A stretch of 64,000 nt of DNA from Squalus acanthias (lineage: Eukaryota). Every line of letters starts with the position of its first letter. The first letter of the stretch is position 1. The DNA is taken from assembly GCA_030390025.1 (NCBI GenBank), contig CM059432.1:64978001-65042000 (forward strand), written 5' to 3'. Of this stretch, positions 15,620-63,553 are shown one piece after another. The notes beneath the pieces are model-generated. The model did no database searches and was not told where the DNA came from. It was given only the letters and a program-made list of their open reading frames with translations. The translations under genes were made by a program, and so were the position numbers.

Positions 15620-15861
15620 CTTCCGCTTCCTCCTCTTCCGCTTCCTCCTCTTCCGTTTCCTCCTCTTCTGCGTCTTCCTCTTCTTCGTCTTCCTCTTCTT
15701 CTGCGTCTTCCTCTTCTTCTGCGTCTTCCTCTTCTTCTGCGTCTTCCTCTTCTTCTGCGTCTTCCTCTTCTTCTGCGTCTTCCTCTTCTTCTGCGTCTTC
15801 CTCTTCTTCTGCGTCTTCCTCTTCTTCTGCGTCTTCCTCTTCTTCTGCGTCTTCCTCTTCC
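15620..15861. repeat. 18-bp minisatellite (GCGTCTTCCTCTTCTTCT)n, reading EEEEDA on the - strand
   Basis: Direct tandem array of about 9 near-perfect units plus degenerate flanking units. Confidence 0.95.
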
Positions 15862-25388: not shown

Positions 25389-26199
25389 GAAAGTAAGCTG
25401 TGAGGAGGATGTAAAGAGGCTGCAAAGGGATATAGACAGGTTAAGTGAATGGGCAAGAACATGGCAGATGGAATATAATGTGTGGAATAGTGAAGTTATC
25501 CACTTTGGTAGAAAAAGAGAGCAGAATATTTTTTAAATGGAGAGAGATCAGTGGGACCTGGATGTCCTTCTACACGAATCACTGAAAGTTAACATGCAGG
25601 TACAGCAATCAATTAGGAAAGCAAATGGCATGTTAGCCTTTATTACAAAAGGATTGGACTATCAGAGTAAAGAAGTCTTACTGCAATTGTATAGGGACTT
25701 GGTGAGACCATACCTGGAGTACTGTGTATCGTTTTGGTCTTCTTACCTAAAGAAGGATATACTTGCCAAAGGTTTACCAGACTGATTCCTGGGATGGGGG
25801 ATTGTCCTATTAGGAGAGATTGAGGAGACTAGGGGGGAGAAATTCATTATAGCTCAGGAATGGGCACTAACCTCTGAAAAGTTTGAGATTTAGCGCCAGT
25901 TGCTAATGAATCTTGCTGCACACTAAATTAAGTGTTAGCGCTGAAAGAAAGGACTGACCACTAAATCAAGTGCTAATGACCTAGCTCAGTGGCGTTAGAC
26001 TCAAAGTGCTAAGCAATTTCAGGTGCAGTCTAATCGCTAGTCATCATTACCACAGGTTCTTTCCCGTTCTTAAAGGTGAGGTTCAATCATTCTGCAGAAC
26101 CTCATTCTCAGCATTGCTGGTTCTGCAGCTGTCTCAGCAAGCAGCAGAAGGCCAAGGGGAAGGAACCAGACCACTGAAGGAGGTGTCAATATATATATA

Positions 26200-26359
26200 A
26201 TTAGATATAATACTCACAACTCGGGGGATCAAGGGGTATGGCGAGAAAGCAGGAATGGGGTACTGAGGTAGCATGTTCAGCCATGAACGCATTAAATGGC
26301 GGTGCAGGCTCGAAGGACCGAATGGTCTACTCCTGCACCTATTTTCTATGTTTCTATGT
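26200..26359 (+). mobile_element. CR1 3' tail fragment inserted just upstream of the Myb start codon
   Basis: GGGATCAAGGGGTATGG..stem-loop..(TTTCTATG)2. Confidence 0.8.
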
Positions 26360-26363
26360 CATT

Positions 26364-28250
26364 ATGGCAGATCAATGGCCCAGGGAGAGAGCTCGCAGAT
26401 TCTGCGACCAGGCATTGGAGACATTGGTCTTCGCTGTGGAGAGACGGAGGGCTGTTCTCTACCTGGCTCGCCGCAAGTCTTCCACGCCACGTGGAGGCAG
26501 GCAGCCCAGCAGGTCTCGGGCAGCACTGTGGTCCCCAGGACCCACACACAGTGCAGGGAGAAATTTAATGACCTCACTCAGGTTGTCAGGGTGAGTCAAT
26601 TCTTCAACAAATGTTACATACCACCATCTGAACCTCAGTCTGCACACACTGCCCAAAGCACCACCCCCAGCACTTACCCACCAACAATCTCCACCTACCA
26701 ACACGCACACCCACATCTCACACCTTGCACACAGTGACAGCTATTCAACTATGGCAGGCACATCTCCCAAACACATTGCTCCACACTCACTCATACACTT
26801 TCCTTTCTCTTGCAGGTCAAGGTTGCTCACAACAGGAGAAGGTTGCTCACAACAGGAGGGAGCAGGAGCGCACAGGCGGGGGACAACCTGATACCCAACC
26901 ACTTTGAGCTGGAGGAAAGAGTGTTGCAAATCATTGGGTGCCAGGTGGTGGATGCCATGGCCACCGGCGACGTCGACCCCATTGAGGACAACAATGGTAT
27001 GTTCATCCCTACTCCTTCTTCACACATCCCACTTCCTCCTCACCCCACAAGCCTTTCCCACTTTCCAGCTAATCACGCTGTATGCATGCCTTTCTCTCTT
27101 CCTACCCCCCTCCCCTAACCTTAACCCAACTTTTGTGCTTTATGCTTTCAGATAATTAGCAAGCACCTGAGCAGCCTTTCCCTGAGGGCACTGTTGAGAG
27201 CGAGGCGGAAGAAGAGGAGGAGGAAGAACACACCGCGTCACTGCATGTCTCACCCGCAGGCACCAGCTCAGATACTGGCACTAAGCGTTCTTTAGAGGCT
27301 AGTGTAGTAGCGGGATCTGCACAGGGTGATGCACCGGGGTCGAGCGGGCTGCAGCAAGATCAGGGGGAAAGTGTAGCTCGGGAGTCAGCTCCCCAGAAGG
27401 CGAGTTCACGCGTGAGTTCTGCTGCACAGGACTCAGATGAGGACCTCGATGGGGAGGCATTTAGAAGGGGGATGGGCAGGCACACGAAGATGATAGGTGC
27501 AATGGCAAGGGTGCCTGAGAGCCTCTCGGCAATGGTAAGGTGCATGGAGGAGTCCGCCTCCAACATTGCATAAGGCTCTGCGCACATCATGCAGCCCATC
27601 ATTTGCATTCAGCAAAGGATGGTGGACACCCAGAGAGACCGTGGCGACCCAGACCTCATGCCGCGTGTGATGGGCGATGTCACAGCTTCCATTGCAGCAC
27701 AGGCGGAAACTATGCAACGTCTTAATGCTGTAATGCAGTCTATGCTTGGTGCCGTCGATTCTCAGACTGCTCTCATGCAGTCTCAGCTTGATGCCACACA
27801 AGCTCTGACTGCTGCCATCGTGGCTGGGTCGACCACCGTCCACCGGGGCTTTCATGGCCAGCAATCTCTGCTCCAGCAGATTGGTAGTGATGCTGAGGTG
27901 CTGCCCCGGGGGAATGGCAGTGGGTCAGTGGAACAGGAAGCTGTTGTCCTATCTCAGGATGACAGCATTCCCGCTCCCACCACAGGCAGTCTGCCATTGC
28001 CCTTGTCGCTGCCTGTCCTCCAGCCAGCCCAGACTGCTGCCGCCCATGCTGAGGTGGTGCAGTCTACAGCTGGACCTGTCAGGCCCAGAGCTGGTCGAGG
28101 GTGTCCTGCAAGGCCATCTGAAGTCTCCCGCACGGACATTCAGCAGCCTTCCACCCACCATGCTGCAACCACTCGCTAACACTTTGTAGGAGCACTAGAG
28201 TAGGCAAAGGTACTGTATCAAGGAGCACTAAGGGACTGCACAAGGGTGAA
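26364..28250 (+). pseudogene. Harbinger Myb/SANT DNA-binding protein pseudogene (3 exons)
   Basis: RERARRFCDQALETLV..QCREKFNDLTQVVR followed by GTGAGT; exons 2 and 3 homologous to the intact copy; frameshifts and stops. Confidence 0.85.
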
Positions 28251-28413
28251 TAGCTAATATTATTGTTGTAAATATGAGTTCACTAATTATTGATAAATTT
28301 GTTAATTGGCTTGGGATGATTTTGTGGTGTTGCTCATTTCAGCTTTGTGCTGTGATATGCCCTGTGACAGGGATGGAATGATGCAGATGTGGTGAGCAAC
28401 GGGGATCTGGGGT

Positions 28414-29580
28414 TTAATTTATTGGAACCGCAGTCTGATGAGGTTCACGGACCGCCCTCCCAGAAGGCCGATTGAGTGGCTGCCTATTCCCTCGCTCCTG
28501 TTCCCCCTCCTCCTCCTCGTCTTCCTCTTCCTCCTCATCCGAGTCCGCCTCCTCCTCTCCCTCTTCCTCCTCCCCCCGAGGTGGTCCCACAGTCCCTGGT
28601 GGCAAGGGCTGGACCCTCATGATGGCCAAGTTGTGGAACATGCAGCAGACCACCACGAAATGGGACACCCACTCAGCCAAGTACTGGAGGGCTCCTCCTG
28701 AGTGGTCAAGACAGCGGAATCGTTGCTTGAGCACCCCGATAGTCTGCTTGATTATGTTCCTGGCGGCAGCATGGCTCTCATTATATGAGTGCTGAGCAGG
28801 AATGTTGGGGTTGCGGAGGGGCATGAGCCAGGTGAAGAGCAGATAGCCCTTGGCTCCGACCAGCCAGCAGCGAGCTTGATGTGGTGGCTGGAAGAGTGCT
28901 GGCACACCGGTCTGGAGCAGGATGAAGGCATCGTAGCTGCTGCCAGGATAGCGGGCATTCACATTGAGGATTCACTGTCTGTTGTTGCACACCAACTGTA
29001 CTTTAAGTGAGTGGTAGCCTTTGCGGTTACGGAAGATCTCAGGATTGTTATGCGGTGCCCGCAAAGCCACAGGTACCCTGCACCATGGGGAAGCCCGCTA
29101 TTCTGGCAAAGCCACATACATGTTCGTCCTGCTTCTCTCTGGTGATGGGGAAGGAAATGTAGTCCCTTTTTCTACTGTAGAGAGCCTCTGTGACCTCCCA
29201 GGTGCAGTGATGGATGGCGAACTGCAAGATGTTCGCTATATCTCCTGTTGCAGACTGGAAGAAACCATTGGCGAAGAAATTGAGGGTGACGGTGACCTTG
29301 ACTGCCTCTGAGAGAGCCGTGGTCGACCTGATCTGAGGCTCGCGGTCCGGATGCAGGAGGTGGCAGAGTTCGGTGACCACATCCTTGCTGAAGTGGAGCC
29401 TTCTAATGCACTGCTCCTCACTTAATTGGAGGTAGGAGACGTGCAGGGTAAGGCCTCCTGTTGAGAGCCCTGATGGCCCTCCACTTCCCTCTGGCCACAT
29501 CTTGCAATCTTTCTCGCTGCCTCCACTCCCTCTGCAGTAGATCCTGGAGGGCGAGGTCGACTGCCAGTACAGCCCCCATT
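28414..29580 (-). pseudogene. Harbinger DDE transposase pseudogene
   Basis: AVKVTVTLNFFANG, NARYPGS, IKQTIGVLKQRFRCLD; frameshifted, catalytic motifs damaged. Confidence 0.9.
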
Positions 29581-30839
29581 AATGTAACGATGTGTAGCAC
29601 TTTGAAATTTTGTCAGAATAAATGTAACAAATTTTTAGTAGTCATAACACTCCTGATACTAAAGAACCTTTCAATGACTAAATTAAACTCTTGCACAATC
29701 GCAAACGGACAGGGAAGCAGCGAAACAGCACTAACCTGACAGCTGCGACTCATCCCTTTAAATATCGCCCCTGGAGCCGCCATCCGCCTGCTTCACGCCT
29801 CCTCTTCCTGTCGTTGTCAGGGCGAGGCACTAAGGCAGGGGCCGATAATCAATTTGGCAGATCAGGCGCTAAAGCCACAGGCGCTAACGGTTAGTGGCGG
29901 CGCTAAGGGGCAACTGGATTTGACGTGTGGCGCTGGATTCACCTCGCCCCGGCGCTACTTCATTAGCGCCCCGGCCAGGCACTAACCAATCAAATTTATC
30001 CCCCAGGCCTATATTCTCTGGAGTTTAGAAGAATGAAAGATGATCTCATTGAAACATATAAAATTCTTACAGGGCTTGACAGGGCAGATGCTGGGAAGAT
30101 ATTTCCCCTGGCTGGGGAGTCTAGAACAAGGGGTCACAGTCTCAGAATAAGGGGTCGGCCATTTAGGACTGAGATGGGGAGAAATTTCATCACTCAAAGT
30201 GTTGTGAATCTTTGGAATTCTCTACCCCAGCGGGCTGTGGAGGCTCAGTCATTGAGAATATTCAAGACAGAGATCGATAGATTTTTGAATATTAAGGGAA
30301 TCAAGGGGTATGGGGATAGTTCAGGAAAGTGGAGATGAGGTAGAAGATCAGCCATGATCTTATTGAATGGCGGATTAGGCTCGAAGGCCCAAATGGCCTA
30401 CTCCTGCTCCTATTTCTTGTGTTCATATGTTCTTCTTGAAATTTTCACTGCCACCTGTACCTCCTTTTAACATGATTAATTTATAGGCCATTGGGCCTAA
30501 TGGCCTATTACTGTTGCTAAATATTTAGATGGTTCTTTGAGTCTATCTTACTTTTTATTATTTATCCCATCTTCACCGAATAAATAGGTCAATAAATTCT
30601 TCAGACCTGCTCCCGCTCCGCTGTTGTTACATCATCGGAAGTGTGTTGGAAATCCTATTTACGTACATTATTTTGTCAGGTTAATCTGTTGGATAAATAC
30701 GGCATCAAACACAGCCCATGCTATGCATCTTCTATTTACTCAGGGCATGTCATTAAATATTGCTGGTATGTCAATACCATTTAACAGCACCAAATTATGT
30801 GTTTAATCCACCACCCCTCCTCTTATTAGTGACAGATGA

Positions 30840-39314: not shown

Positions 39315-39488
39315 ATTGATTCTTTGCTAGGTTGCAGTTCTCACCAGATATCCACACATGATTACTTCCAGCAGGGGTCTCTGGCTAACAATTGAGGTCA
39401 TGATGCGGAGATGCCGGTGTTGGACTGGGGTGGACAAAATTGAGAGGTCGCACAACACCAGGTTATAGTCCAACAGTTTTATTTGAAA

Positions 39489-39526
39489 TCACAAGCTTTC
39501 GGAACTATCGCTCCTTCCTCAGGTGA
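39489..39526 (-). ncRNA. Minimal type I hammerhead ribozyme motif (mirror copy)
   Basis: Reverse complement of 43055-43092. Confidence 0.72.
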
Positions 39527-39861
39527 AGTAAATTGGATACAGAATCGTCAGAGCATATATAGATGGAAAAAAAAGCATGTGTACTTTACAATTGCAGACC
39601 AATAAATTAAATCATCCTGACTATCTGCCGAGGTGTGATAAAGTTAATTAAGTCAGCCAGGAAGGTACCACATCAAAAGACATAGCAAGATACAACTGAG
39701 ACAATGAGGTGAAGTCGCAGGGGTTCTAACGTGTCAAAAGCTGCCGTCTGTATGTAAAACGAAAAGCTTTAAAAAAAATTTTTACTTTTTTACTGGGAAA
39801 ATTTTTACTTTTTTACTGGGAATCACATCTGTGAACAAGCTAACGACGACTCGAGTCCGGA

Positions 39862-41289
39862 TCACGTCATGTATCGTGACATAAACCCAAGATCCCGATT
39901 GAGACCGTCTTCATGAGTGCAGAACTTGGCTATCAGTTTCTGCTCGATGATTTTGCGTTGTCGTGTGTTTCTAAGGTTGCCTTGGAGAACGCTTACCCGC
40001 AGATCCGAGGCTGAATGTCCTTGACTGCTGAAGTGTTCCCCGACTGGGAGGTAACAATCCTGCCTGGCGATTGTTGCGCGGTGCTCGTTCATACGTTGTC
40101 TCAGTGTCTGCATGGTCTCGCCGATGTACCATGCCGCGGTGCATTCTTTCCTGCAACGTATGAGGTAGACAACGTTGGCCGAGTCACATGAGTATGTACC
40201 ATGTACCTGGTGGGTAGTGTCCTCACGTGTGATGGTGGTATCTGTGTTGATGATCTGGCATGTCTTGCAGAGTTTGCCATGGCAGGGTTGTGTGGTGTCG
40301 TGGTCGCTGTTATCCTGAAAGCTGGGTAATTTGCTGCGAACGATGGTACTTCTGAGGTTAGGCGGCTGTTTGAAGGCAAGTAGTGGAGGCGTGGGGATGG
40401 CCTTAGCGAGGTGTTTGTCGTCATCGATGACATGTTGAAGGCTGCGAAGAACATGTCGTAGTTTCTCCGCTCCGGGGAAGTACTGGACGACGTAGGGTAC
40501 CCTGTTGGTTGTGTCCCGTGTTTGCCTTCTGAGGAGGTCTATGCGATTTTTCGCTGTGGCCCGTCGGAACTGTCGATCGATGAGTCGAGCGTCATATCCC
40601 GTTCTTACGAGGGCGTTTTTCAGCGTCCGTAGGTGTCCATCGCGTTCCTCCTCGTCTGAGCAGATCCTGTGTATTCGCAGGGCTTGTCCATAGGGGATGG
40701 CTTCTTTAACATGGTTAGGGTGGAAGCTGGAGAAGTGGAGCATCGTGAGGTTGTCCGTGGGCTTGCGGTAGAGTGAAGTGCTGAGGTGTCCGTCTTTGAT
40801 GGAGATTCGTGTGTCCAGGAATGAGACCGATTCTGAGGAGTAGTCCATGGTGAGTTTGATGGTGGGATGGAACTTGTTTATGTTATCGTGTAGTCTTTTC
40901 AGTGATCCTTCGCCATGGGTCCAAAGGAAGAAAATGTCGTCGATGTATCTGGTGTACAGCGTTGGCTGGAGGTCCTGTGCAGCGAAGAAGTCTTGCTCGA
41001 ACTTGTGCATGAAGATGTTGGCGTATTGGGGTGCGAATTTGGTCCCCATGGCTGTTCCGTGTGTTTGGGTAAAAAAATGGTTGTCGAAGGTGAAGACATT
41101 GTGGTCAAGGATGAAGCGGATGAGTTGTAGGATGGCGTCTGGAGATTGGCTGTTGTTGATGTTGAGTACTGAGGCTGTTGCAGCGATGCCGTCATCGTGG
41201 GGGATACTGGTGTAGAGTGCCGATACGTCCATCGTGGCAAGGAGTGTTCCTGGTTCAACTGGTCCGTGGGTGCTGAGTTTCTGTAAGAA
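39862..41289 (-). CDS. Penelope RT + GIY-YIG endonuclease, 5'-truncated (frame open up to the fold-back point)
   Basis: MDVSALYTSIP, GTAMGTKFAP, RYIDD, VYLIRC..WYIGET; 456 aa from the first Met at 41232. Confidence 0.93.
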   Translation of the reverse strand, partial: FLQKLSTHGPVEPGTLLATMDVSALYTSIPHDDGIAATASVLNINNSQSPDAILQLIRFILDHNVFTFDNHFFTQTHGTAMGTKFAPQYANIFMHKFEQDFFAAQDLQPTLYTRYIDDIFFLWTHGEGSLKRLHDNINKFHPTIKLTMDYSSESVSFLDTRISIKDGHLSTSLYRKPTDNLTMLHFSSFHPNHVKEAIPYGQALRIHRICSDEEERDGHLRTLKNALVRTGYDARLIDRQFRRATAKNRIDLLRRQTRDTTNRVPYVVQYFPGAEKLRHVLRSLQHVIDDDKHLAKAIPTPPLLAFKQPPNLRSTIVRSKLPSFQDNSDHDTTQPCHGKLCKTCQIINTDTTITREDTTHQVHGTYSCDSANVVYLIRCRKECTAAWYIGETMQTLRQRMNEHRATIARQDCYLPVGEHFSSQGHSASDLRVSVLQGNLRNTRQRKIIEQKLIAKFCTHEDGLNRDLGFMSRYMT

Positions 41290-41291
41290 AC

Positions 41292-42719
41292 TTCTTACAG
41301 AAACTCAGCACCCACGGACCAGTTGAACCAGGAACACTCCTTGCCACGATGGACGTATCGGCACTCTACACCAGTATCCCCCACGATGACGGCATCGCTG
41401 CAACAGCCTCAGTACTCAACATCAACAACAGCCAATCTCCAGACGCCATCCTACAACTCATCCGCTTCATCCTTGACCACAATGTCTTCACCTTCGACAA
41501 CCATTTTTTTACCCAAACACACGGAACAGCCATGGGGACCAAATTCGCACCCCAATACGCCAACATCTTCATGCACAAGTTCGAGCAAGACTTCTTCGCT
41601 GCACAGGACCTCCAGCCAACGCTGTACACCAGATACATCGACGACATTTTCTTCCTTTGGACCCATGGCGAAGGATCACTGAAAAGACTACACGATAACA
41701 TAAACAAGTTCCATCCCACCATCAAACTCACCATGGACTACTCCTCAGAATCGGTCTCATTCCTGGACACACGAATCTCCATCAAAGACGGACACCTCAG
41801 CACTTCACTCTACCGCAAGCCCACGGACAACCTCACGATGCTCCACTTCTCCAGCTTCCACCCTAACCATGTTAAAGAAGCCATCCCCTATGGACAAGCC
41901 CTGCGAATACACAGGATCTGCTCAGACGAGGAGGAACGCGATGGACACCTACGGACGCTGAAAAACGCCCTCGTAAGAACGGGATATGACGCTCGACTCA
42001 TCGATCGACAGTTCCGACGGGCCACAGCGAAAAATCGCATAGACCTCCTCAGAAGGCAAACACGGGACACAACCAACAGGGTACCCTACGTCGTCCAGTA
42101 CTTCCCCGGAGCGGAGAAACTACGACATGTTCTTCGCAGCCTTCAACATGTCATCGATGACGACAAACACCTCGCTAAGGCCATCCCCACGCCTCCACTA
42201 CTTGCCTTCAAACAGCCGCCTAACCTCAGAAGTACCATCGTTCGCAGCAAATTACCCAGCTTTCAGGATAACAGCGACCACGACACCACACAACCCTGCC
42301 ATGGCAAACTCTGCAAGACATGCCAGATCATCAACACAGATACCACCATCACACGTGAGGACACTACCCACCAGGTACATGGTACATACTCATGTGACTC
42401 GGCCAACGTTGTCTACCTCATACGTTGCAGGAAAGAATGCACCGCGGCATGGTACATCGGCGAGACCATGCAGACACTGAGACAACGTATGAACGAGCAC
42501 CGCGCAACAATCGCCAGGCAGGATTGTTACCTCCCAGTCGGGGAACACTTCAGCAGTCAAGGACATTCAGCCTCGGATCTGCGGGTAAGCGTTCTCCAAG
42601 GCAACCTTAGAAACACACGACAACGCAAAATCATCGAGCAGAAACTGATAGCCAAGTTCTGCACTCATGAAGACGGTCTCAATCGGGATCTTGGGTTTAT
42701 GTCACGATACATGACGTGA
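41292..42719 (+). CDS. Penelope RT + GIY-YIG endonuclease, 5'-truncated, identical to the mirror copy
   Basis: Same 456-aa translation from 41349; frame open from FLQKLSTHG at 41292. Confidence 0.93.
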   Translation, partial: FLQKLSTHGPVEPGTLLATMDVSALYTSIPHDDGIAATASVLNINNSQSPDAILQLIRFILDHNVFTFDNHFFTQTHGTAMGTKFAPQYANIFMHKFEQDFFAAQDLQPTLYTRYIDDIFFLWTHGEGSLKRLHDNINKFHPTIKLTMDYSSESVSFLDTRISIKDGHLSTSLYRKPTDNLTMLHFSSFHPNHVKEAIPYGQALRIHRICSDEEERDGHLRTLKNALVRTGYDARLIDRQFRRATAKNRIDLLRRQTRDTTNRVPYVVQYFPGAEKLRHVLRSLQHVIDDDKHLAKAIPTPPLLAFKQPPNLRSTIVRSKLPSFQDNSDHDTTQPCHGKLCKTCQIINTDTTITREDTTHQVHGTYSCDSANVVYLIRCRKECTAAWYIGETMQTLRQRMNEHRATIARQDCYLPVGEHFSSQGHSASDLRVSVLQGNLRNTRQRKIIEQKLIAKFCTHEDGLNRDLGFMSRYMT

Positions 42720-43054
42720 TCCGGACTCGAGTCGTCGTTAGCTTGTTCACAGATGTGATTCCCAGTAAAAAAGTAAAAATTTTCCCAGTAAAAAAGTAAA
42801 ATTTTTTTTTAAAGCTTTTCGTTTTACATACAGACGGCAGCTTTTGACACGTTAGAACCCCTGCGACTTCACCTCATTGTCTCAGTTGTATCTTGCTATG
42901 TCTTTTGATGTGGTACCTTCCTGGCTGACTTAATTAACTTTATCACACCTCGGCAGATAGTCAGGATGATTTAATTTATTGGTCTGCAATTGTAAAGTAC
43001 ACATGCTTTTTTTTCCATCTATATATGCTCTGACGATTCTGTATCCAATTTACT

Positions 43055-43092
43055 TCACCTGAGGAAGGAGCGATAGTTCCGAAAGCTTGTGA
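43055..43092 (+). ncRNA. Minimal type I hammerhead ribozyme motif in the Penelope 3' UTR
   Basis: TCAC-CTGAGGA-A-GGAGC(GATA)GTTCC-GAAA-GC-TT-GTGA: core CUGANGA/GAAA, 5-bp stem II, palindromic AGCT stem III, 4-bp stem I. Confidence 0.75.
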
Positions 43093-46000
43093 TTTCAAAT
43101 AAAACTGTTGGACTATAACCTGGTGTTGTGCGACCTAACAATTGAGAGCAGGAATCTAGGTGGATTTTCCCCTTCCTAACCTTGTTATCAGTTCTCCTGG
43201 GAGGGAATTGTGAATTTGGCTAACAATCTGTCTGTGTGAAAAGGGACTTGTTAAGGAAACAGCCCAGAGAATGCTGGGCATAAAACAGTGGAAGAAATGG
43301 GTTGCCTCATATGCCATTAGGCATGGAAGAGAAGAACCACCACTGGGCACTGAGTCTAATTGTAGAGCTGCTACGACTGCCTGAGATCAGCTAATCCAGC
43401 ACATAGAGTGGAATGAACCTGGGGCCTTCCTAATCTACACTACTCAGCTACTCACTGCTTAAGCCATCACACGAGCTCTCGTAATGATAATTTGGCTGCC
43501 CCAATATTTAGTATTGTACTCTAATAGCCAAATCTACAGTATATACCAATCACATTAGTGATGTAGGGTTAGTTGAAAAGAATAAAAACATAAGAACATA
43601 AGAAATAGGAGCAGGAGTAGGCCTTTCGGCCCTTCGAGCCTGCTCCGCCATTCAATGAGATCATGGCTAATCTTCTGCCTCAACTCCATTCACCGGCCCT
43701 ATCGCCATATCCCTTGATGCCCTTACTAGTCAGAAATCTATCAACTTCTGTTTTGAATATACCCAATGACTGAGCCTCCACAGCCCTCTGGGGTAGAGAA
43801 TTCCAAAGATTCACCACCCTCTGTGTGAAGAAATTTCTTCTCATCTCAGTCCTGAATAGCCTACCCTTTATCCTGAGGCTGTGGCCCCTGGTTCTAGACT
43901 CCCCAGCCAAGGGAAACATTCTCCCAGCATCCACCCTATCAAGCCCTGTAATAATTTTGTATGCTTCAATGAGATCCCCTCTCATTCTTCTGAATTCAAG
44001 AGAATACAGGCCTAGTTTACTCAATCTCTTCTCATACGACAGTCCTGCCATCCCAGGAATCAATCTCGTGAACCTTCGTTGCACTCGCTCTATGGCAAGT
44101 ATATCCTTCCTTAGGTAAGGAGAGCAAAATTGTACACAGTACTCCAGGTGTGGTCTCACCAAGGCCCTATATAATTGGAGTAAGACTTCTTTACTCCTGT
44201 ACTCAAATCCTCTTGTAATGAAGGCCAGCATACCATTTGCCTTCCTAATTGCTTGCTGCACCTTCAGTGACTCATGTACAAGGACACCCAGGTCCCTTTT
44301 GAGCATCTGCATTCCCCAATCTTTCACCATTTAGGAAATACTCTGCCTTTCTGTTTTTTCTACCAAAGTGGATAACTTCACATTTATCCACATTATATTC
44401 CATCCGCCATGTTCTTGCCCACTCACTGTGCCTGTCGAGATCCCCCTGAAGCCTCTTCACATCCTCTTCACAACTGACGCTGCCACTTAGCTTTGTATCA
44501 TCAGCAAATTTGGAAATGTTACATTTAGTCCCCTCAACCAAATCATTGATATAGATTGTGAATAGCTAGGGCCCAAGCACCGATCCTTGCAGTACCCCAC
44601 TAGTCACAGCCTGCCATCCTGAAAAAGACCCGTTTATCCCGACTCTTTGTTTTCTGTCTGTTAATCAATTCTCAATCCATGCTAGTATATTACCCCCAAT
44701 TCCATGTGCCCTAATTTTGTTCACCAACCTCTTGTATGGGACCTTATCGAAGGCCTTCTGAAAATCCAAATATACCACATCTACCGGTTCCTCTTTGTCT
44801 ACTCCACTAGTTACATCCTCAAAGAACTCCAATAGGTTTGCCAAACAGGATTTCCCTTTCATAAATCCATGTTGACTCTGCCCAATCTTACCATTAGTTT
44901 CTAAGTGTCCAGTTATTGCATCCTTTATAATAGATTCCAGCATTTTCCCAACTACTGATGTGAGGCTAAGAGGTCTGTATTTCCCCGTTTTCTCTCTCCC
45001 TCCTTTCTTAAATAACGGGGTTACATTTGCTATCCTCCAATCTGCAGGAACCGTTCCAGAATCTATAGAATTTTGGAAGATGACAACCAATGCGTCCACT
45101 ATCCCAATGGCCACCTCTTTCAAAACCCTAGGATGTAGGTCATCCAGTCCTTGGGATTTATCGACTTTTAGTCCCATTAATTTTGCTAGTACTGTTTTTT
45201 TATGATAATAATTTCTTTAAGTTCCTCATTATCGCCACAACCTTGGTTTTCTCGTATTCCTGGGAGGTTTTTTGTGTCTTCCTCCGTGAAGACAGAAACA
45301 AAGTATTTATTTAATTTCTCTGCCTTTTTCTCATTCCCCATTATAAATTCTCTCGTCTCTGACTGTAAAGGACCTACATTTACCTTTGCCAGTCTTTTCC
45401 TTTTCACATACCTATAGAACCTTTTACAATCCGTTTTTATATTTTTTGCTAGTTGGTGCTTATATTCCATTTTCCCTTTTTTTTTAAATCAATTTCTTGG
45501 TCCCCCTTTGCTGATTTCTAAAAAGATCCCAATCCTCAGGTTGACCGCTTTTTCCAGCAACTTTATAAGCTTCCTCCTTTGACTTTAATTTCTTTTGTTA
45601 GCCATCGTTGGATCACTTTTCCTTTTGGGTGTTTATGCCCTATGTTTGTTGCAAATTATGCATTATTTCCTTGAATGTTAGCCATTGTATGTCCACCTTC
45701 ATAACTTTTAGTGTAGTCTCTCAATCTACCATGGCCAACTTGTCCCTCATACCCTTGTAGTTTCCTCTGTTTAGATTGAAGACCTTAGTTTCAGATTGGA
45801 CTACATCACTCTCAAACTTAATGTAAAATTCAATCATATTATGGTCACTTGTCCCTAAAGGCCCCTTTATCACAAGATTATTGATTAGCCCTTTCTCATT
45901 ACACAGTACCAGATCCAGAATAGCCTGTTCCCTGGTTGGTTCCTCCACATACTGATCCAGGAAACCATCTTGCATGCATTCCAAGAATTTGTCCTCCACA

Positions 46001-48894: not shown

Positions 48895-51330
48895 GGAGAT
48901 AGATTAGGCCTGTTTTTGGGTGCAGAATAGATGGCATGCTCGTAGTATGCACCTGATCACGTGGGTGCAAGGAAATCACCAAATTGGTCCGCCATCCTCC
49001 TTTGCCTAGCGTAGACGGAATGCCAGCACTGTTCGTGCTGTTGAATGCCAATTTGCCTAATGAGAGCGGGTATATAGGGCATCCCTGAGGCCATTTAAAG
49101 GCAGTCTGCACCTCTTAAAGGGGAGGTGCACTTGGCTGCAATCAGCTGCAAGTACCGATTAAAGTAGCAGGCGGAGGAGAACCTAGAAGGGCCCCCTGTT
49201 TTTTGAACACAGCGTTGGAGGTGCTGGTGGAAAAGGTTGGCTAGATCAGGGACATCCTATTTCCTTCCAGTGGTAAAAGCTCTCCAGGCAAGTTTTTCAG
49301 CAAGCAGTCTGAGGTGGCAGAGTGGGTAAGCGCAAGGAGTATTGCACCCAGGATATGGCTCCAATGCAGAAAGAAATTCAATGATCTGACAAGCGCTGCT
49401 AAGGTAAGGCTCATAACTTATCCCTCTCATTACTCTCTGCTTAGCCCTGCACTACCTGTAGCACCAGTACTCAGAACCGTTCACACCCCGTCTCCCCATC
49501 ACTCTCCTCCAACCACAGCAGCACACGTCCCTCAACCTCCTTTTGCTGCTACTGCAACACTCTACACATGCTATTGTCCTCATTATTACTTCACTCACAC
49601 CCACACATCTGTGCCATCTTTCACACACCTCTTATACTACTCTGATATGCATCTCCTCAATAAATCTCATTAGGCTATTGCTACACAAACCAACTTCACC
49701 ACACTGCCTTCTTTCTTGCAAGACAAGCTGGCATGCAGTATGAGGGAGCATGCGAGGACAGAAGGAGAGGGAGTGATCATCCATGTGCTGTCTCCACTGG
49801 AAGACCAAGTAATGGATTAGTGGATGGGGCATTAGGAGCCTGCTGACTGACGAGGTTGGAGGACACGTCATACAGGGTTTCCCACCATCTTACCCTTGTT
49901 CCTCCTGACTGAAATCTAACCTTCACACATGATGCATGACAAAGAGCTGCTGCTTTCAGCAGCCTTAAGAATGTAAGAACATAAGAAATAGGAGCACGAG
50001 TAGGCCATTTGGCCCTTCAAGCTTGCTCCGCCATTCAATAAGATCTACTACCTCAACTCTACCTTCCTGCACTATCCCCAGATCCCTTGATTCCCTTTGT
50101 ATCTAAAAATGTATCGATCTCTGTCTTGAATATACTCAACGACTGAGCATCCACAGCACTCTGGGGTAGACAATTCCAAAGATTCACAACCCTTTGAGCG
50201 AAGAAATTTCTCCTCATCTCAGTCCTAAATGGCCGACCCCTTATTCTGAGACTATGACCCCTACTTCTAGACTCCCCAGCCAGGAGAAACATCCTCCCAG
50301 CATCTACCCTTTCAAGCCCCTTAAGAATTTTATACATTTCAATAAGCTCACCTCTCATTCTTCTAAACTCTAGGGAATATAGGCCGGGTCTACTCAATCT
50401 CTACTCATAGGACAATCCCCTCATCCCAGGAATCAGTCTAGTGAAGCTGTGTTGCCATCCCTCTATGGCAAGTATGTCCTTCCTTAGCTAAGGAGACCAA
50501 AACTGTGCACAGTACTCCAGGTGTAGTCTCACCAAGGCCCTATACAATTGCAGTACGACTTCTTTACTCTTGTACTCCAATTCTTTTGTAATAAAGGCTA
50601 ACATACCATTTGCCATCCTAATTGCTTGCTGTACCTGCATGTTAACTTCCTGTGATTCGTGTACAAGCACACCGAGGTCCCTCTGAATAGTGACATTTCC
50701 CAATCTCTCACCATTTACAAAATATTCTGCTTTTCTATTTTTCTTACCAAAGTGGATAACTTCACATTTCTCCACATTATATTTCATCTGCCACGATTTT
50801 GCCCACTCACTTAACCTTTCTATATCCCTTTGTAGCCTCTTTGCGTTCTCCTCACAACTTACTTTCCAACCTATGTTTTGTATCGTCAGCAAATTTGGAT
50901 ACATTACACTCGGTCCCCTCATCCAAGTCATTGATATAGATTGTAAATAGCTGAGGCCCAAGCACTGATCCTTGTGGTACCCCCCTAGTCAATCATCTGT
51001 TTCTGCTTACACTTGCCACTAAATGCGAACCATTGTCCCTCTCTTCCATTTCTGTTCCAGAAGTTTGACAGGGACCTGAGGGAGCAAATGAAGAGGAGGA
51101 CAGGACACTAGATGATGAAGCAGCACTCAAACTTATCCTTGCAGGCACCAGCTGAGAGACTGGCACTCCATGTAGTTCAGAGGGTGGACTAGAAGGGTCG
51201 GCACTGGGAAATGCACCCAGCACTAATGTGCAGGAGCAAGGAAAGGGAAATAGAATGGTTGAGGAAGCAGCTCTACATGGAGAGCTCTTGCATCCTAGCC
51301 TTGCTGCAGGGTCCCCGGCTGCAGTCTCCT
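48895..51330 (+). mobile_element. Old Harbinger Myb-gene remnant interrupted by CR1
   Basis: APRIWLQCRKKFNDLTSAAK followed by GTAAGG at 49404; exon-3-like sequence at 51060-51320; boundaries approximate. Confidence 0.72.
49965..50992 (-). mobile_element. CR1 3' fragment
   Basis: RT C-terminal ORFs and tail. Confidence 0.92.
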
Positions 51331-53644: not shown

Positions 53645-55388
53645 TAAGAACATAAGAAATAGGAGCAGGAGTCGGGCATTCGGCCCCTCGAGCCTGCTCC
53701 GCCATTCAATAAGATCATGGCTGATCTGATCTTGGCCTCAACTCCACTTTCCTGCCTGTTCCCCATAACCCTTGACTCCCCTGTAGCTCAAATATCTGTC
53801 TATCTCAGCCTTGAATATATTCACTGATTAAGCCTCCACAGCTCTCTGGGGTAGAGAATTCCAAAGATTCACAACCCTCTGAGAGAAAAAATTCCTCCTC
53901 ATCTCCGTCTTAAATGGGCGGCCACTTATCCTGAAACTATGCCCCCGAGTTCTAGATTCCCCCATGAGGGGAAACATTCTCTCAGCATCTACACTGTCAA
54001 GCCCCCTCAGAATCTTATGTTTCAATAAGATCACCTCTCATTCTTCTAAACTCCAATGAGTATAGGCCCAACCTGCTCAACCTTTCCTCATAAGACAACC
54101 CTTTCAGCTCAGGAATCAACCTAGTGAACATTCGCTGAACACCCTCCAATGCAAGTATATCCCTCCTTAAATAAGGTGACCAAAACTGTATGCAGTACTC
54201 CAATGTACAATGCCCTGTACAGTTGTAGCAAGCCTTCCCTACTTTTATACAACATCCCCCTTGCAATAAAGGCCAACATTCCATTTGCCTTCCTAATTAC
54301 TTGCTGTACCTGCATGCTAACTTTTTGTGTTTCATGTACGAGGACACCCAGATCCTTCTGCAGCATTCTGTAGTCTCTCTCTATTTAAAAAATATTTTGC
54401 TTTTCTATTCCTCCTACCAAAGTGGATAACCTCACACTTTCCCACATTATACTCCATCTGCCAAATTTTTGCCCACTCACTTGACAGGGTAGATGCTGAG
54501 AGAATGTTTCCCCTCATGGGGGAATCTAGATCCCTTTGCAGACCTGTGTCCTCCTCACAACTTGCTTTCCCATCTATCTGTGTATCATCAGCAAATTTGG
54601 CTACAGTACACTCGGTCACTTCATCCAAGTCATTAATATAGATTGTAAATAGTTGAGGCACCAGCACTTATCCCTGTGGCACCCCGCTAGTTACAGTTTG
54701 CCAACCTGAAAATGACCCATTTATCCCGACTCTCTTTTTTCTGTTAGTTAGCCAATCCTCAACCATGCTAAATATTACCCCCAACACCGTGAGCTCTTAT
54801 CTTGTGCAGTAACCTTTTATGTGGCACCTTATCGAATGCCTTTTGGAAATCCAAATACACTACATCTACTGGTTCCCCTTGATCCACCCTGCTCGTTACA
54901 TCCTCAAAGAACTCTAATAAATTTGTCAAACACGATTTCTCTTTCATAAAACCATGTTGACTCTGCTTAATTGTATTATGATTTTCTAAACGTCCTGCTA
55001 CTACTCCCTTAATAATGGATTCCAGCATTTTCCCAATGACAGATGTTCGGCTAACTAGCCTATAGTTTCCTGCTTTCTCCCTCCTTTCTTGAACAGGGGC
55101 ATTACATTTGCGGTTTTCCAATCCACTGGGACCTTTCCAGAATCTAGGTAATTTTGGAAGATTACAACCAATGCATCCACTACCTCTGCAGCCTCCTCTT
55201 TTAAGACCCTAGGATGCAGGCCATCAGGTGCAGGGGACTTCTCAGCCTTTAATCCCATTAGTTTGCCGAGTACATTTTCTCTAGTGATAGTGATTGTTTT
55301 AGGTTCCTCCCTCCCTTTTGCCCCTTGATTATCTACTATTATTGGGATGCTTTTAGTGTCTTCCACTGTGAAGACAGATACAAAATAT
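53645..55388 (-). mobile_element. CR1 RT region with a 51-bp templated inverted insertion
   Basis: RT motifs ([19 protein letters not shown]) and tail. Confidence 0.92.
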
Positions 55389-55909
55389 AGCACTGTTAAC
55401 AAAGTAAAAGTATCATGGTACTTTAGAAAAGGGATTGGACACTTAGACACAAGCTTTGGAGGGAGGGTTAGGGAACTGGACCGAGGGTGCAGTTGAAGAG
55501 CTAGGTTTTGAGAAGGCTTTTTGAAAGTGAGGAGACATGTAAAAAGACAAGGGGGTAGAAATTAGGTCGCGCCCCATTTGGGGCGCAAATATCGTCCGCG
55601 CGCAAATATTAGCGCCTGGCGCTAATTATCGGCACTGACAGGAAACTTCACTTTTACCGCCCCGGGAGGTGAGTGGAGCGCTAAATTAGGCGCTGCACAC
55701 CTCTCTTAAGGCGCAAAGGCCTAGGAGTGAGGCGCTAACTCAGCGCACGAGCGCAGCGCAGCTGCTGCCAGTTAGCGAGGGAACACAGACACACTGGCGC
55801 CGGACACTTCTTAAAGCGGGGGGGGGCCACTTGCTCCCCAGCCACACCCTGCTCATTGCAGCCTTGAATCTCAGCCTGGAGAGACCTGTAATCCATTTTG
55901 CTGCCAAGC

Positions 55910-57906
55910 ATGGAGAGGGTGAGAGAACGCGCTCATCGCTTCACCGAGCGGGCCTTGGATGCTCTGGTTGACGCAGTGGAGCGCAGACGATGCATGCTGT
56001 TCCCGGAGAGTGGCAGGAGGCCTTTGCCACGCGAGTTCAGAAGAGTGTGGAGGGAGGTGGCTCAGAGCGTCTCCTCCAGGAGCATGGTGCCCAGGACCCA
56101 TGTCCAGTGCCGCAAAAAGTTCAACGACCTCACTCGGGTCGTCAGGGTGAGTGGCTTTTTCTCAATACCTCTCCATCCCTCCATCTCAACCTCACTCTAT
56201 GGCCAGAGGGTCTTAAAACCCCAATGCACAACACTCATGCAACACCTATGGCCCTTTCATCAAACACACACACACATTCCACACTTTGCATACAGTAAGG
56301 GCTATTCAGCTATGGGAGGCACATCAGGCAAGACCATGGCTGCATACAGTAAGGGCTATTCACCTATGGGAGGCACATCAGGCAAGACCATGGCTGTATA
56401 TTGACTCAGATGCTGTCCTTTTTCTTGCAGGCTAAGCTGGCTCATAATCGGAGACAGCAGCAACGGACGGGTGGAGGGCGGCTTCAGCTGCAACCCCTCA
56501 GCGATCTGGAGGAGCGCGTCCACAGGATTGTGGCAAGCCGGGTGATCGGTCCCGTCGCCACTGGAGACGCCGACCCCGTTGTGGACAGCAATGGTAAGGT
56601 CATCACCTTTTTGTCCTCTGTCCTTCCACTTGTCCCTCACAATACCAGCCTTTGACACTTTCAATCCAACTTGCTAACTCGCTGCACTTATTCCTCCCTT
56701 ACTGCCACCCTGTCCTCACGCTAAAGCCACTCTTGTACCTCCCTGCTTTCAGATGGTGATTCACCAGCTGAGGAGATGGTCCCTGAAGCTGCCACTGGGA
56801 GTGATGCTGCAGCTGAGGAGGAAGAGGAAGCCGGAGCATCAGTGCCACCCTCTCCCGAGGAAGCCCATGGCCACACTGGGAACACGCCTTCCCCGGAGGG
56901 GAGCAGGGGGGAAGGGGCTGATGATGGTGAAGTTCCAGGACCCAGCGGGCTGCAGCAACGCCATGGGGGGGGGAGGGAAGAACGGGGGAGCAGGGGGGAA
57001 GGGGCTGATGATGGTGAAGTTCCAGGACCCAGCGGGCTGCAGCAACGCCATGGGGGGGGGAGGGAAGAACGGGGGAGCAGGGGGGAAGGGGCTGATGATG
57101 GTGAAGTTCCAGGACCCAGCGGGCTGCAGCAACGCCATGGGGGGGGGAGGGAAGAACGGGAGCCTTCTCCCCAGAGGGAGAGTATGCCAGACACTCCTAA
57201 TGCAATGGACGCAGAGGAGGAGCGGCTGATTGCAGAAATGAACAGCCAGGCGGTGGTCATGCACACTGAGCTCATGGGTGCAGTGGGAAGGGTGCCCGAA
57301 TGCATTGAGGCACTGGCAAGGAGTGTGGAGCACTTCGCTGTAGCACAGGCGGATGCCACACTAAAGCTTACTGCTGCAATTCAGTCACTGGCTGCCAGGA
57401 ACCCATCTGAGCCTGCTCTCATGCAGACTCAGATTGAGGCCATGCGAGCACTGACCGCTGCCATCCTCGATGGTTCGTGCACATGTCCCCGGGGCTGTCA
57501 CCGCGCCGCAGCAGGCCAGCAATCTGTTCTCCGGCAAATTGCTCCGGATGCTGAAGTGCTGCCCCGTGGGAGTGCCAGTGTGTCGGGCGAGCAGGGAGTT
57601 GCTGTCCTCTCTCACGATGACAGCATTCCTGCTGCCAACACTGTCACTTCTCCACTGCACTTGCCACCGCCTGTAGGACAGACTGCTGCCGCCCATGCAG
57701 AGTTGGTGCAGTCTGCAGCCGGGCCCTCCAGGCCCAGAAGTGGTCGAGGCCGTCCTTCAGGGGCATCTGCAGTGTCAGGGTCTGACAAGCAGCAGCCTTC
57801 CACCAGCCTTGCTGCAGCCACTGAGGTCCCATTACGGAGGAGCAGTAGGGTTAGAAGGGGGGAAGTGCGCAAGGGAAGGAGATCACCCTCGAAGGGCAAA
57901 AAGTAG
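55910..57906 (+). CDS. Harbinger Myb/SANT-like (trihelix, NAIF1-like) protein; exons 55910-56146, 56431-56593, 56753-57906; 517 aa
   Basis: RFTERALDALV..WREVA..RTHVQCRKKFNDL; GT-AG introns of phase 0 and 1 join into one stop-free 1554-nt frame; basic C-terminus. Confidence 0.9.
56287..56400. repeat. 54-bp tandem duplication in Myb intron 1
   Basis: TGCATACAGTAAGGGCTATTCA.. at 56287 and 56341. Confidence 0.92.
56899..57159 (+). repeat. In-frame 87-bp x3 tandem repeat
   Basis: GSRGEGADDGEVPGPSGLQQRHGGGREER three times. Confidence 0.95.
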
Positions 57907-58200
57907 GAGGTGTGCCAAAATGCTGGTCATTTTTTTATTAAAGGCCGAGGTTCATGGCCCAACTTTTGTTTAGTGTTTTGGACATTATCTCCAGGTTGTG
58001 AGAACCAGTTATGTTATTGACTGTTTTTTTGTGTTTATTTCTATGAGTTTGTCATGAGGAATTGACACACACAGAGTTTGTACAATAAATAAGTTTCTGT
58101 ATTCAAAATATACATGGCTGGTGGTTGGAATTATTGGTGCCTTGGCCGGCTTAGGGGTTGCGTGCTGGGTTGATTCGTGTTTGTAGCACTGGCAGGGGCC

Positions 58201-59361
58201 CTAGAAGCGGCTTGCTATTAGTCGTTGACGGACGGCCCTTGCAGTTTGACCATTGTGGGCCGCCCTCCTGCCTTGGTGCTGCTGCTGATCATCGTCCTCG
58301 GCCTGTTCCTCCTCTTCCTCCTCCTCCTCTTGTGGTGCTGCAAGGCCTGGTGGCATTGGCTGCGTCCTGAGGATTGCCATGTTGTGCAACATGCAGCACA
58401 CCACTACGAATTTGGAAACTTGCTCAGGCGAGTACTGCAGGGCTCCTCCGGAATGGTCCAGACAGCGGAATCGTTGTTTGAGCACGCCGATTGTGCGCTC
58501 AATAATGTTCCTCGTTGCTTGTTGGCTTTCCTGGTACCGCAGCTCAGCAGGGGTGTTTGGCGCACGGAGCGGTGTCATCAGCCAGGTGCTCAATGCGTAC
58601 CCCTTGTCCCCCAGAAGCCAACCAACTGGCTGATGCGGTGCCTCGAAAATTTCTGCCACAGTACTCTGGCGCAGGATGAAAGCATCGTGGCAGCTGCCCG
58701 GATAGTGGGCATTGACAGCGAGAATCACCTGTCTGTGGTCACAGACCAACTGCACATTCAAGGAATGGAACCCCTTTCTGTTCCGGAACTCCTCTGCATT
58801 CTCTCGCGGAGCACGCAAAGCCACATGCGTGCAGTCAATGGCGCCCTGCACCATGGGGAAGCCCGCTACCCTCGCAAAGCCCATAGCACGGTCATGCTGC
58901 TTGTCTGGGGTCATAGGGAAGGAGATGAAGTCTCGTCTCCTTGTGAAGAGGGCATTGGTGACCTGCCGGATGCAGCGATGCACCGCAAACTGGGAGATAT
59001 TGGCGAGGTCCCCAACAGCAGCTTGGAATGAGCCAGTGGCGTAGAAGTTCAAAGCCACTGTGACCTTCACTGCCACCGACAGAGACGTCCTGGACCTCAG
59101 CTGAGGCTGCAGATCTGGCTGCAGCAGGTGGCAGAGCTCAGTGACCACCTCCTTGCTGAATCGCAGCCTTCGCAAACACAGCTCCTCGGACATGTGGATG
59201 TAGGAGAGCTGTTCACGATATACCCTGGGAGGGTAAGCTCTCCTGTACATGCGCCTGATGGGCCTCCTCCGTCTGGCCATCATTGCCACTCTCTGTCTGC
59301 GTCTCACTCTCCTCCGATTGAGCTGGAGCAGGACGACGCCCCCAATCATTGCAGCCCCCAT
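58201..59361 (-). CDS. Harbinger (HARBI1-like) DDE transposase, 386 aa
   Basis: GAIDCTHV, YPGSCHD, LLGDKGY, IERTIGVLKQRF; no stops; TATTTAAA upstream near 59560. Confidence 0.96.
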   Translation of the reverse strand: MGAAMIGGVVLLQLNRRRVRRRQRVAMMARRRRPIRRMYRRAYPPRVYREQLSYIHMSEELCLRRLRFSKEVVTELCHLLQPDLQPQLRSRTSLSVAVKVTVALNFYATGSFQAAVGDLANISQFAVHRCIRQVTNALFTRRRDFISFPMTPDKQHDRAMGFARVAGFPMVQGAIDCTHVALRAPRENAEEFRNRKGFHSLNVQLVCDHRQVILAVNAHYPGSCHDAFILRQSTVAEIFEAPHQPVGWLLGDKGYALSTWLMTPLRAPNTPAELRYQESQQATRNIIERTIGVLKQRFRCLDHSGGALQYSPEQVSKFVVVCCMLHNMAILRTQPMPPGLAAPQEEEEEEEEQAEDDDQQQHQGRRAAHNGQTARAVRQRLIASRF

Positions 59362-60044
59362 CTTCTCTTTGCCAGAAAAGTAATGAGGTACAGCAACGAA
59401 AGTAGCAGCAAAGTTAGGATGAACTAGGCAAAACTACCTCACAAAGCGTTGAGTCAATGTAGAAGTCTCTCTCTCTCTCTCTCCGAATCTCTCTCTCTCT
59501 CTCAGAACGAGTGGTGCATAAATGTCGACCACAGAAAAAGACAGGAAGAGGCCCCCTTTAAATAGCGCCCCCCCCAGCCCCACACCGATTGATAACGTTC
59601 CAGTCTTCCGGTCGTTGGAAGCGCCAGGCGGTAAGGCAGGGGGCGCCACTCAATTTCCGCTCCGGGGCGCCCCAAGGGCGTTGCACCACGGAATGACGTC
59701 ACAATCTGCGCGCGCAGGTGGTCGCAGCGGTAAGTTTTAGCGCCGCCGCACAATCTCAAGTTAAGTTCTCGAGCGGCGCAAACAGCGCTGCGCCCGGGCG
59801 TTAGCGCCTTAACGCCCCATTAGCGCCCATTTAAGGCGCTAACGGGAGGCGCAACCAACTGAATTTTTACCCCAAGGGCTTTCAGAAAAGAACTAAAAAA
59901 TGCTGGGTAGGGCATGAATACTGAAGGCTCTAACATTGATGGTGCAGCAGAGCGATGCATATAACTAACGGCAAAAAAGCAGAGGATGCAAGCTGGGACT
60001 TAGGGCTGAAGGTGGTTGCAGAGGAAGAATGCAGTAAAGTCATA

Positions 60045-60798
60045 GGGGAAGAAATTCACTATCGCCCCGTCTGGGGCGCTAATTTTTTAAAGTTTGAAAA
60101 GTTAGCGCCAGGCGCTAACGATTTCAAACTTTTGAAAAATTTGCCGTTTGCACTCCAAGAGGGAAGTGGAGCATTAAATCAAGCGCTCCACTTCATTCTT
60201 GGAGCGCAATCAGCAGCAGTCCGGACGGAGACTTCAGCAGCGCCACACACTGGGCCGTGCAGCGCTGCCGTGTTCAAAGGCTCCTTCCCTCCTTTAAAGG
60301 GAAGGGCCATCGCTGCAGGTTCTGCAATAGAAAAATTACCTACCTGGACCACCAAGGCAGTCGTGATCCAGTGCGATCAGCCCAGCACTCAAGCAGAGTG
60401 CCGGGCTGATCGATCATGGGCAGAAACCCGCGAAAAAAACTGGAACAAGAAAGGTAAGTTTTTTTTTACTTACCTCGGCCACCTTGCCTTTAATCATCAC
60501 CCCCGAAGCGGCCGGCCGCCCGATGCACGCCTCCTGCAGCTGTCGGTGTTTTCGACCGGTGCTGCTGCAGGGGGTGGAAGTCAATTTCGGGTCCGGGGCG
60601 CTACTGGGGCGATGCGCACGGCGATGACGTCACGATCTCCAGGCGATGGTGATCGGGGCGCAACGCCATAGCGCCGCTGCAAAACTCCTGCCGAATATGG
60701 CGGGACTCGATGTCAGTGTCGCGCCCGGTTGCAAAGCCATTTGTGCCGCATTAGCGCCCGCGCTAACGGGAGGTGCAAAGGCACGGAATTTCACCCCC
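60045..60798 (+). mobile_element. Harbinger MITE related to the intact element
   Basis: TIR GGGG(A/G)(A/T)GAAATTC, near-TSD ATA/ATT, shared subterminal GCGCTAACGGGAGG. Confidence 0.87.
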
Positions 60799-63470: not shown

Positions 63471-63553
63471 AAGGGGCGACAGCTCCGAAAGCTTGTAATT
63501 TTAAATAAATCTGTTGGACTATAACCTGGTGTTGTGCGACTTCTCATTTTTGT
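63471..63553 (+). mobile_element. Penelope 3'-tail fragment of the 39-43 kb family
   Basis: CTCCGAAAGCTTGT..CTGTTGGACTATAACCTGGTGTTGTGCGAC matches 43066-43135. Confidence 0.85.

Follow-up and report, generated by a model that had tools for sequence, protein, structure and literature searches.

We consider the element at positions 55552-59873 of a 64,000-nucleotide stretch of the Squalus acanthias genome (contig CM059432.1); this whole stretch is called the window in what follows. The element is very probably a full-length PIF/Harbinger DNA transposon of the autonomous type, which arrived in this elasmobranch genome by cut-and-paste and has decayed little since. It has two convergent open genes, one for a transposase and one for a Myb-like protein, the second intron of the Myb gene is spliced at the level of the family, and the 3-bp duplication of the target lies within a 15-bp palindrome of the type known from the zebrafish element Harbinger3_DR. 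A sequence-only reading had put forward a candidate naturally active Harbinger at this place. The full-length two-gene structure, the spliced Myb gene and the lack of a visible inactivating lesion stand, and the claim of activity today is the part that we do not carry over. The two-gene reading is strengthened by three results that are laid out below: an empty site, an RNA joint across intron 2, and a match of the target site.

Empty site and insertion target

The window sequence is present in 20 of 24 listed sequencing runs, with six organism codes, and four runs (X1, X2, X17, X19) were aligned. A single contig of the DNA run X2 (record 26; 364 nt at a depth of 7.8) joins 55359-55547 directly to 59873-60034. 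Because positions 59873 and 55548 are both C, this contig reads as the left flank, one AAG and the right flank, that is, as the site without the element. Another animal thus has no element here, and the insertion is therefore comparatively late. A clean excision leaves a site identical to one that was never filled (PMC2836001). The carrier of the empty site may be a sister species.

The empty site can also be reconstructed from the window itself, by joining 55543-55551 to 59877-59882. The target of Harbinger3_DR is palindromic and 15 bp long (PMC3016246), and the reconstructed site matches it at 12 of 15 bases, with a duplicated triplet of AAG and not CWG; a score of 12 is reached by about 2 of the 64,000 positions of the window. 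The half-sites were compared at the ends of the other Harbinger elements as well, in a test that was repeated on 10 ends after the removal of two false ones. Over all 10 ends, 39 of 60 bases match where 17.7 are expected. When the 55552 element is excluded, the eight remaining ends still have 28 matching bases out of 48, where 14.2 would be expected (P=3e-5), and therefore the target preference seems to be shared by the older families too.

Termini and subterminal motifs

The triplet AAG stands on each side of the element, and 11 of the 12 outermost bases are identical from end to end (14 of 18 overall), with the similarity dropping beyond. The terminal inverted repeats (TIRs) and the perfect AAG target-site duplication (TSD) that had been described from the letters are accordingly upheld. 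The PIF/Harbinger superfamily's 3-bp TSD is found as AAG at both sides of the filled site and once in the empty one; a 5-bp duplication with a TIR one base shorter fits the letters equally well. At two older elements of the window, the flanking triplets match in two of three bases. The window has 12 occurrences of the TIR pattern GGGG-NNN-AAATT, where shuffled sequences have 0.65, and 10 of the 12 are at Harbinger ends. TIR-like matches at 41047 and 41534 were dropped, since they lie inside a reverse-transcriptase palindrome. With 12 bp, the TIR is shorter than the 25-50 bp that are usual for PIF/Harbinger (PMC9179366). This short TIR excepted, all the testable sequence features of an autonomous PIF/Harbinger are present.

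Inward of the TIRs, seven copies of the motif GGCGCTAA lie in the outermost 250 bp of the two ends and none in the 3.8 kb between them. Its 7-mer core is also found close to the termini of older elements and of a neighbouring miniature inverted-repeat transposable element (MITE). Because the Myb protein of Harbinger3_DR binds the ends of its own element (PMC2836001, PMC9392472), the GGCGCTAA arrays are, by analogy, likely binding sites of the Myb protein. We infer that the left subterminal region is in addition the promoter region of the Myb gene. The ratio of observed to expected CpG is 1.03 and 1.21 at the two ends, against 0.48 in the interior of the element and 0.27 in the flanking CR1, so the retention of CpGs noticed earlier is confirmed by measurement. 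As a mark of youth it is rejected, because the ends of decayed copies are similarly rich: the ratio is 0.81-1.18 at five of eight older Harbinger ends (0.44-0.69 at the other three), and the argument fails to part young copies from old ones.

The Myb/SANT gene and its splicing

The three exons of the Myb gene, all with GT-AG boundaries, join into a stop-free frame of 517 amino acids, as had been proposed. Two GT-AG exon combinations were tried, one of which gives this open frame while the other contains six stops. The joint of intron 2 (56593/56753) is seen in both of the probable RNA runs, in three contigs of X17 and one of X19, and in neither of the two DNA runs, X1 and X2. It is aligned as 56592/56752 and becomes 56593/56753 when shifted by one base to restore GT..AG. 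That X17 and X19, which are from two organism codes, represent RNA is a guess.

For intron 1, the evidence comes from homologues and from decayed copies. A word-index search with exon 1 gives one match, and a full HMMER scan gives 74. Of the 74 homologues compared, 53 reach across the junction of exons 1 and 2, and 47 of these show no gap there; for five of the 74, the alignment extends into the latter half of exon 3. A database protein, P0006, has the Myb domain with the identical exon 1/2 join, fused to a transposase. Among the decayed copies, donor 1 is preserved in all three, and acceptors 1 and 2 are each preserved in two of two, so that the claimed recurrence of the splice positions holds at these three sites; at donor 2 it holds in one of two copies. 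Such sequence comparisons argue strongly, if indirectly, for intron 1. The frame of exon 1 stays open through most of this intron (55910-56404), and an unspliced transcript would encode a Myb-only protein of 164 amino acids. Retention of intron 1 as a form of regulation, with the 164-amino-acid product as a possible repressor, finds no support, because the unspliced contigs span all parts of the element.

The middle block of exon 3 (about 57214-57475) is conserved; it is followed by an RGRP motif at 57745 and a basic tail (57835-57903), the last of which is a candidate nuclear localisation signal. The three 87-bp units upstream of the middle block (56898-57160) are 100% identical to each other, and a protein with a single unit would have 459 amino acids. 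The homologues in the database do not have this extra stretch, and some family contigs from X2 skip two of the units. The existence of single-unit copies is what these contigs establish, and the idea that the triplication is private to the 55552 copy is unsupported. With the protein of exon 3, the word-index search returns nothing at E<=0.001 and there is no Pfam match; an Atlas search returns one chordate cluster at 0.78, which is a lead only.

The transposase and its relatives

The stop-free transposase with D-D-E motifs of the sequence-only reading is borne out by its 386-amino-acid frame and Pfam match (Table 1) and by the acidic residues D176 (58836), D226 (58686), D252 (58608) and E288 (58500), all present, which we take, by their conservation, to be the catalytic ones. 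Just 39 of the 104 database matches that cover these positions retain all four, and the other 65 are without at least one. The commonest change in the E288 column is from E to K (18 of 120 matches), which the decayed copy at 28.6-29.4 kb has as well; in cases where the codon before it has C as its last base, this change at the last catalytic residue could be CpG decay. Among the 40 listed of 182 variants in the family, nine fall in the transposase, five being silent and the others P34A, I238L, A256P and K317N, all four outside the catalytic and invariant columns. Residue 256 is A in our copy, whereas P is the most frequent there (72 of 120 matches, with A in 7).

The predicted structure of the transposase is confident, with a predicted local distance difference test (pLDDT) score of 82. 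A PDB sequence search gives no match (one row at E=0.77), and a fold search with the model gives nothing at E<=0.001, the weak rows being mostly other DDE transposases and integrases. Since no solved Harbinger transposase is found by sequence or by fold, the protein is a structural candidate. A complex predicted from transposase residues 40-345 and Myb residues 282-430 has a score of 0.01 and is counted neither way.

Among the best 120 of 364 matches, most are elasmobranch, and the closest transposases are those of sharks and rays, which are 60-66% identical to ours. In a tree of 29 sequences chosen from the 120, midpoint-rooted for drawing only, the transposase falls in a group of 24 rows of which the remainder are all elasmobranch (support 100/99). 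Because the transposase groups in this way, vertical descent within the elasmobranchs is the history that the sequences suggest. The best matches, in the same clade, are elasmobranch proteins called 'putative nuclease HARBI1' (for example P0001 of Pristiophorus japonicus). These names are automatic and come without a description of an element, and none of the proteins is close enough to belong to the same family. Five sets of HARBI1-like proteins (P0004/P0005, P0009/P0012, P0039/P0040, P0019/P0023/P0063 and P0008/P0017) are 70-90% identical across distant sharks and rays, mostly on short branches, with the catalytic loss at E288 in 9 of the 11 proteins and at D226 in the other two. These sets have the look of Harbinger transposases that were domesticated on several occasions, specifically in elasmobranchs.

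Abundance, age and rival explanations

The summed contig depth is about 3-10 x 10^5 within the element against 4-12 on the unique right flank, a ratio of 10^4-10^5 in both DNA runs. The ratio is a rough sign of high copy number and not a copy count, and the family appears to be very abundant, with thousands of copies or more. The contigs are alike at 99% or more in about a fifth of cases and at 90-95% in nearly half (12319 of 28096 in X1), and from this spread it follows that young and old copies coexist. In a neutral-decay simulation, both genes, the splice sites and the catalytic residues are all kept in 67-73% of copies at 0.2% divergence, 13-22% at 1%, 4-8% at 1.7% and less than 1% at 3%. 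Because the simulated intactness falls below 1% at 3% divergence, the model places our copy probably within about 1-2% of a working parent. Whether both proteins of the copy are still functional is, in our judgement, an even bet; continued germline movement of the family is rather doubtful.

The best-surviving alternative is a well-preserved fossil, in which the burst of the family lies millions of years back, chance has kept this copy intact, and the copy or the whole family is now immobile. The identity of the element would be unchanged by it, and we give it close to an even chance. About half of the aligned family contigs are just 90-95% alike, and roughly half of the sampled words occur under each of four more organism codes (C-F), which suggests that the family predates their splits. 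At the published shark rates (PMC9826928), a slow clock, a divergence of 1% takes 9-63 million years, and 13-22% of the simulated copies are still intact at that point; the other two-gene relics that were examined in the window are all broken. What speaks against the fossil is that the empty site comes from a run that shares its organism code with the best-matching run, that a fifth of the contigs are at least 99% alike, that some pieces of 123-139 nt from the probable RNA runs are identical, and that the three 87-bp units are 100% identical.

Several further observations weigh against the reading of a little-decayed and expressed copy. Against the flanks of the window, the empty allele shows five differences in 189 positions and one in 162, or 6 of 351 in total. 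The insertion would be polymorphic if X2 came from the same species as the window; with X2 from a sister species, it could date back about 8-53 million years, a rough figure computed from the six differences and from six shark rates in PMC9826928. The contigs of X17 and X19 are mostly from other copies of the family (0-6% different in the listed pieces), and they cover introns and ends as well. RNA junctions at both introns had been proposed as a check; that of intron 2 is found, and that of intron 1 (56146/56431) is absent among the 15 of 60 joints listed, with one X17 contig continuing unspliced through the donor of intron 1. Our copy has the minority letter at many sites of the family (e.g., 55599, 57412, 57443, 58411 and 59262), and of the listed variants, 25 are within the Myb exons, where 20 change an amino acid. 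Exon 3 carries a tandem expansion of 58 amino acids, and its middle block is about 45 amino acids shorter than that of the decayed paralogue at 27.3-28.2 kb, a short form that is common to family contigs from organisms A and B. Finally, an intact copy is the one that would by chance be singled out for notice in a very large family. The most far-reaching reading, that of a very large elasmobranch family (about thousands to tens of thousands of copies) which is still moving, with this copy working, unreconstructed, polymorphic in its own species and in a target near that of Harbinger3_DR, is one that we consider rather unlikely.

A clean-looking copy could also be produced by an assembly that collapsed many damaged copies into a consensus, since the family is very abundant and none of the listed contigs covers the whole element. 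This is very improbable, because the copy has minority letters and tandem expansions of its own, which a consensus would lose, and because both flank joins agree exactly with the independent empty-site contig. That the two genes are a domesticated host pair of the HARBI1/NAIF1 kind, as the 'putative nuclease HARBI1' names of the relatives and the several domesticated-looking, short-branch cross-order pairs among the matches might suggest, is hardly credible: it is contradicted by the empty site, by the TIRs, the TSD, the very high family depth and the position beside a CR1 relic, the domesticated-looking pairs are mostly without the catalytic residues that our transposase keeps, and the single copy, fixed syntenic position and lack of TIR and TSD of a domesticated gene (PMC9392472) are not what is found here.

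Proposed mechanism

The zebrafish and rice systems provide a template for how such an element would move. The spliced Myb protein would bind the GGCGCTAA arrays beside each TIR, and it would also bind the N-terminus of the transposase and carry it into the nucleus via its basic C-terminal tail. The transposase would cut at the TIRs with its D/D/E site and excise the element cleanly, and the excised element would integrate at a new palindromic target. Short elements and MITEs with identical ends may be mobilised in trans by the same proteins, and the adjoining MITE-like element at 60045-60798 is a possible substrate of this kind.

Feature coordinates and other elements of the window

Table 1. 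Features of the Harbinger element at 55552-59873 and of the MITE-like elements in the window (positions in the window; evidence or remarks in the last column).
Feature	Position	Strand	Evidence or remarks
15-bp palindromic target site, left half	55543..55548		right half 59877-59882; comparison with Harbinger3_DR consensus
Left TSD, AAG	55549..55551		flank reading; single AAG in empty-site contig
Left TIR, 12 bp, GGGG-NNN-AAATT	55552..55563	+	11/12 identical to right TIR
Left subterminal CpG-rich region, four GGCGCTAA motifs	55564..55801		55609 (-), 55618, 55731, plus 7-mer 55678
Myb exon 1, Myb/SANT trihelix domain (aa 1-79)	55910..56146	+	Pfam Myb_DNA-bind_5 PF13873, E=1.3e-9
Intron 1, GT-AG, 284 nt	56147..56430	+	homologues and decayed copies; contains 54-bp tandem duplication 56287-56400
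Myb exon 2	56431..56593	+	frame, decayed copies, homologues
Intron 2, GT-AG, 159 nt	56594..56752	+	joint in probable RNA runs
Myb exon 3: acidic linker, three 87-bp units, middle block, RGRP motif, basic tail	56753..57906	+	frame, homologues
Shared 3' spacer of the convergent genes, 294 bp	57907..58200		polyadenylation-like hexamers 57937, 58084 (+) and 58034, 57934 (-); use putative
Transposase, intronless, 386 aa, no stop	59361..58201	-	Pfam DDE_Tnp_4 PF13359, E=5e-38
Right subterminal CpG-rich region, four GGCGCTAA motifs	59624..59861		59737, 59801, 59820 (-); 59835
Right TIR, 12 bp	59862..59873	-	comparison with left TIR
Right TSD, AAG	59874..59876		flank reading; empty-site contig
MITE-like non-coding elements, about 750 bp	60045-60798 and 17217-17954		same TIR pattern, GCGCTAA motifs

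Harbinger elements and their relics make up 15,684 of the 64,000 bases of the window, or about 24.5%. The two MITE-like elements have CpG-rich ends and flanking triplets that match in two of three bases, and the left end of the 55552 element is 87% identical across 38 bp to the end at 17954. The stretch 25833-30004 is taken up by a full-length but decayed Harbinger, about 70% identical and from another family, with both genes, both TIRs and matching splice positions; it lies within a CR1-like relic whose halves are on either side of it. Further Harbinger relics, mostly parts of the Myb gene, are at 2454-4695, 8934-9790, 14187-15698, 18414-20303 and 49095-49412, and in the relic at 18414-20303 pieces of the Myb gene and of the transposase are brought together across deletions.

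A different kind of repeat is found at 39438-43143, a CpG-rich palindrome of 3.7 kb whose arms are 99.8% identical and each contain an open frame of 480 codons with a reverse-transcriptase match (RVT_1, E=1.5e-8). This looks like a young Penelope-like element in an inverted arrangement; a fold-back artefact of the assembly is possible. A short piece related to it is at 63471-63553.

Comparison with known systems

In this one 64-kb window of a shark genome, about a quarter of the sequence is Harbinger-derived and one copy is complete. If the family is indeed moving, with a target near that of Harbinger3_DR, the target preference would have been deeply conserved among the Harbingers of jawed vertebrates, and a group described as dominated by long interspersed nuclear elements (LINEs) with few DNA transposons would possess a natural vertebrate transposon that selects its sites. 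An intact natural gene pair, defined ends, a candidate motif and an empty site together make two-component transposition and the choice of the 15-bp target directly testable. The element is a good candidate for an activity assay, unreconstructed and unusually complete.

We find no published intact elasmobranch Harbinger in the literature, and Repbase, Dfam, subscription papers and supplements may well contain the family. In the elephant shark, Harbingers were undetected according to the accessible text of PMC9179366, which recommends other cartilaginous fish for testing and reports Harbinger expression in teleosts and a newt. In a reef-shark genome, Tourist/Harbinger is the commonest class among the 1.58% of DNA transposons, with no element described in the part of that paper that is available (PMC12498223).

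Among the closest systems by description is Harbinger3_DR of zebrafish, a reconstructed consensus and a vertebrate Harbinger shown moving in cells (PMC2836001, PMC9392472, PMC3016246). It likewise has a transposase, a Myb-like gene, a 3-bp TSD and a 15-bp palindromic target. The difference is that Harbinger3_DR was rebuilt from a consensus, whereas the element at 55552-59873 is a natural, single copy whose two frames are open; we set the two side by side by description only. Rice Ping/Pong and mPing share the requirement for two proteins, the clean excision, the MITE partners and an extended target preference, but they are plant elements with a 9-bp target preference and a TSD of the TTA type (PMC2836001). 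Coelacanth Harbingers, with ongoing accumulation and expression in a slow-evolving fish (Smith et al. 2012, cited in PMC5381603 and PMC9179366), belong to a different lineage from our element and are likened to it by description only.

The kind of system found here is already known, and intact, expressed natural vertebrate Harbingers are in print from the sea kraits (PMC8437027). Harbinger-Snek has 269 intact copies in one species of these snakes and one in another, with reads over both genes, and is possibly still moving (PMC8437027). Like our element, it is a natural two-gene vertebrate Harbinger of high copy number. It differs in being a reptile element from horizontal transfer, whereas the transposase here groups with those of elasmobranchs, which fits vertical descent; and the accessible text of PMC8437027 gives for it neither an empty site, nor a splice joint, nor a target consensus. 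What our analysis newly adds to the sequence-only reading is the empty site, the family-level splicing of intron 2, the match to the 15-bp target, the GGCGCTAA array, the placement of the transposase among those of sharks and rays and the apparent abundance of the family.

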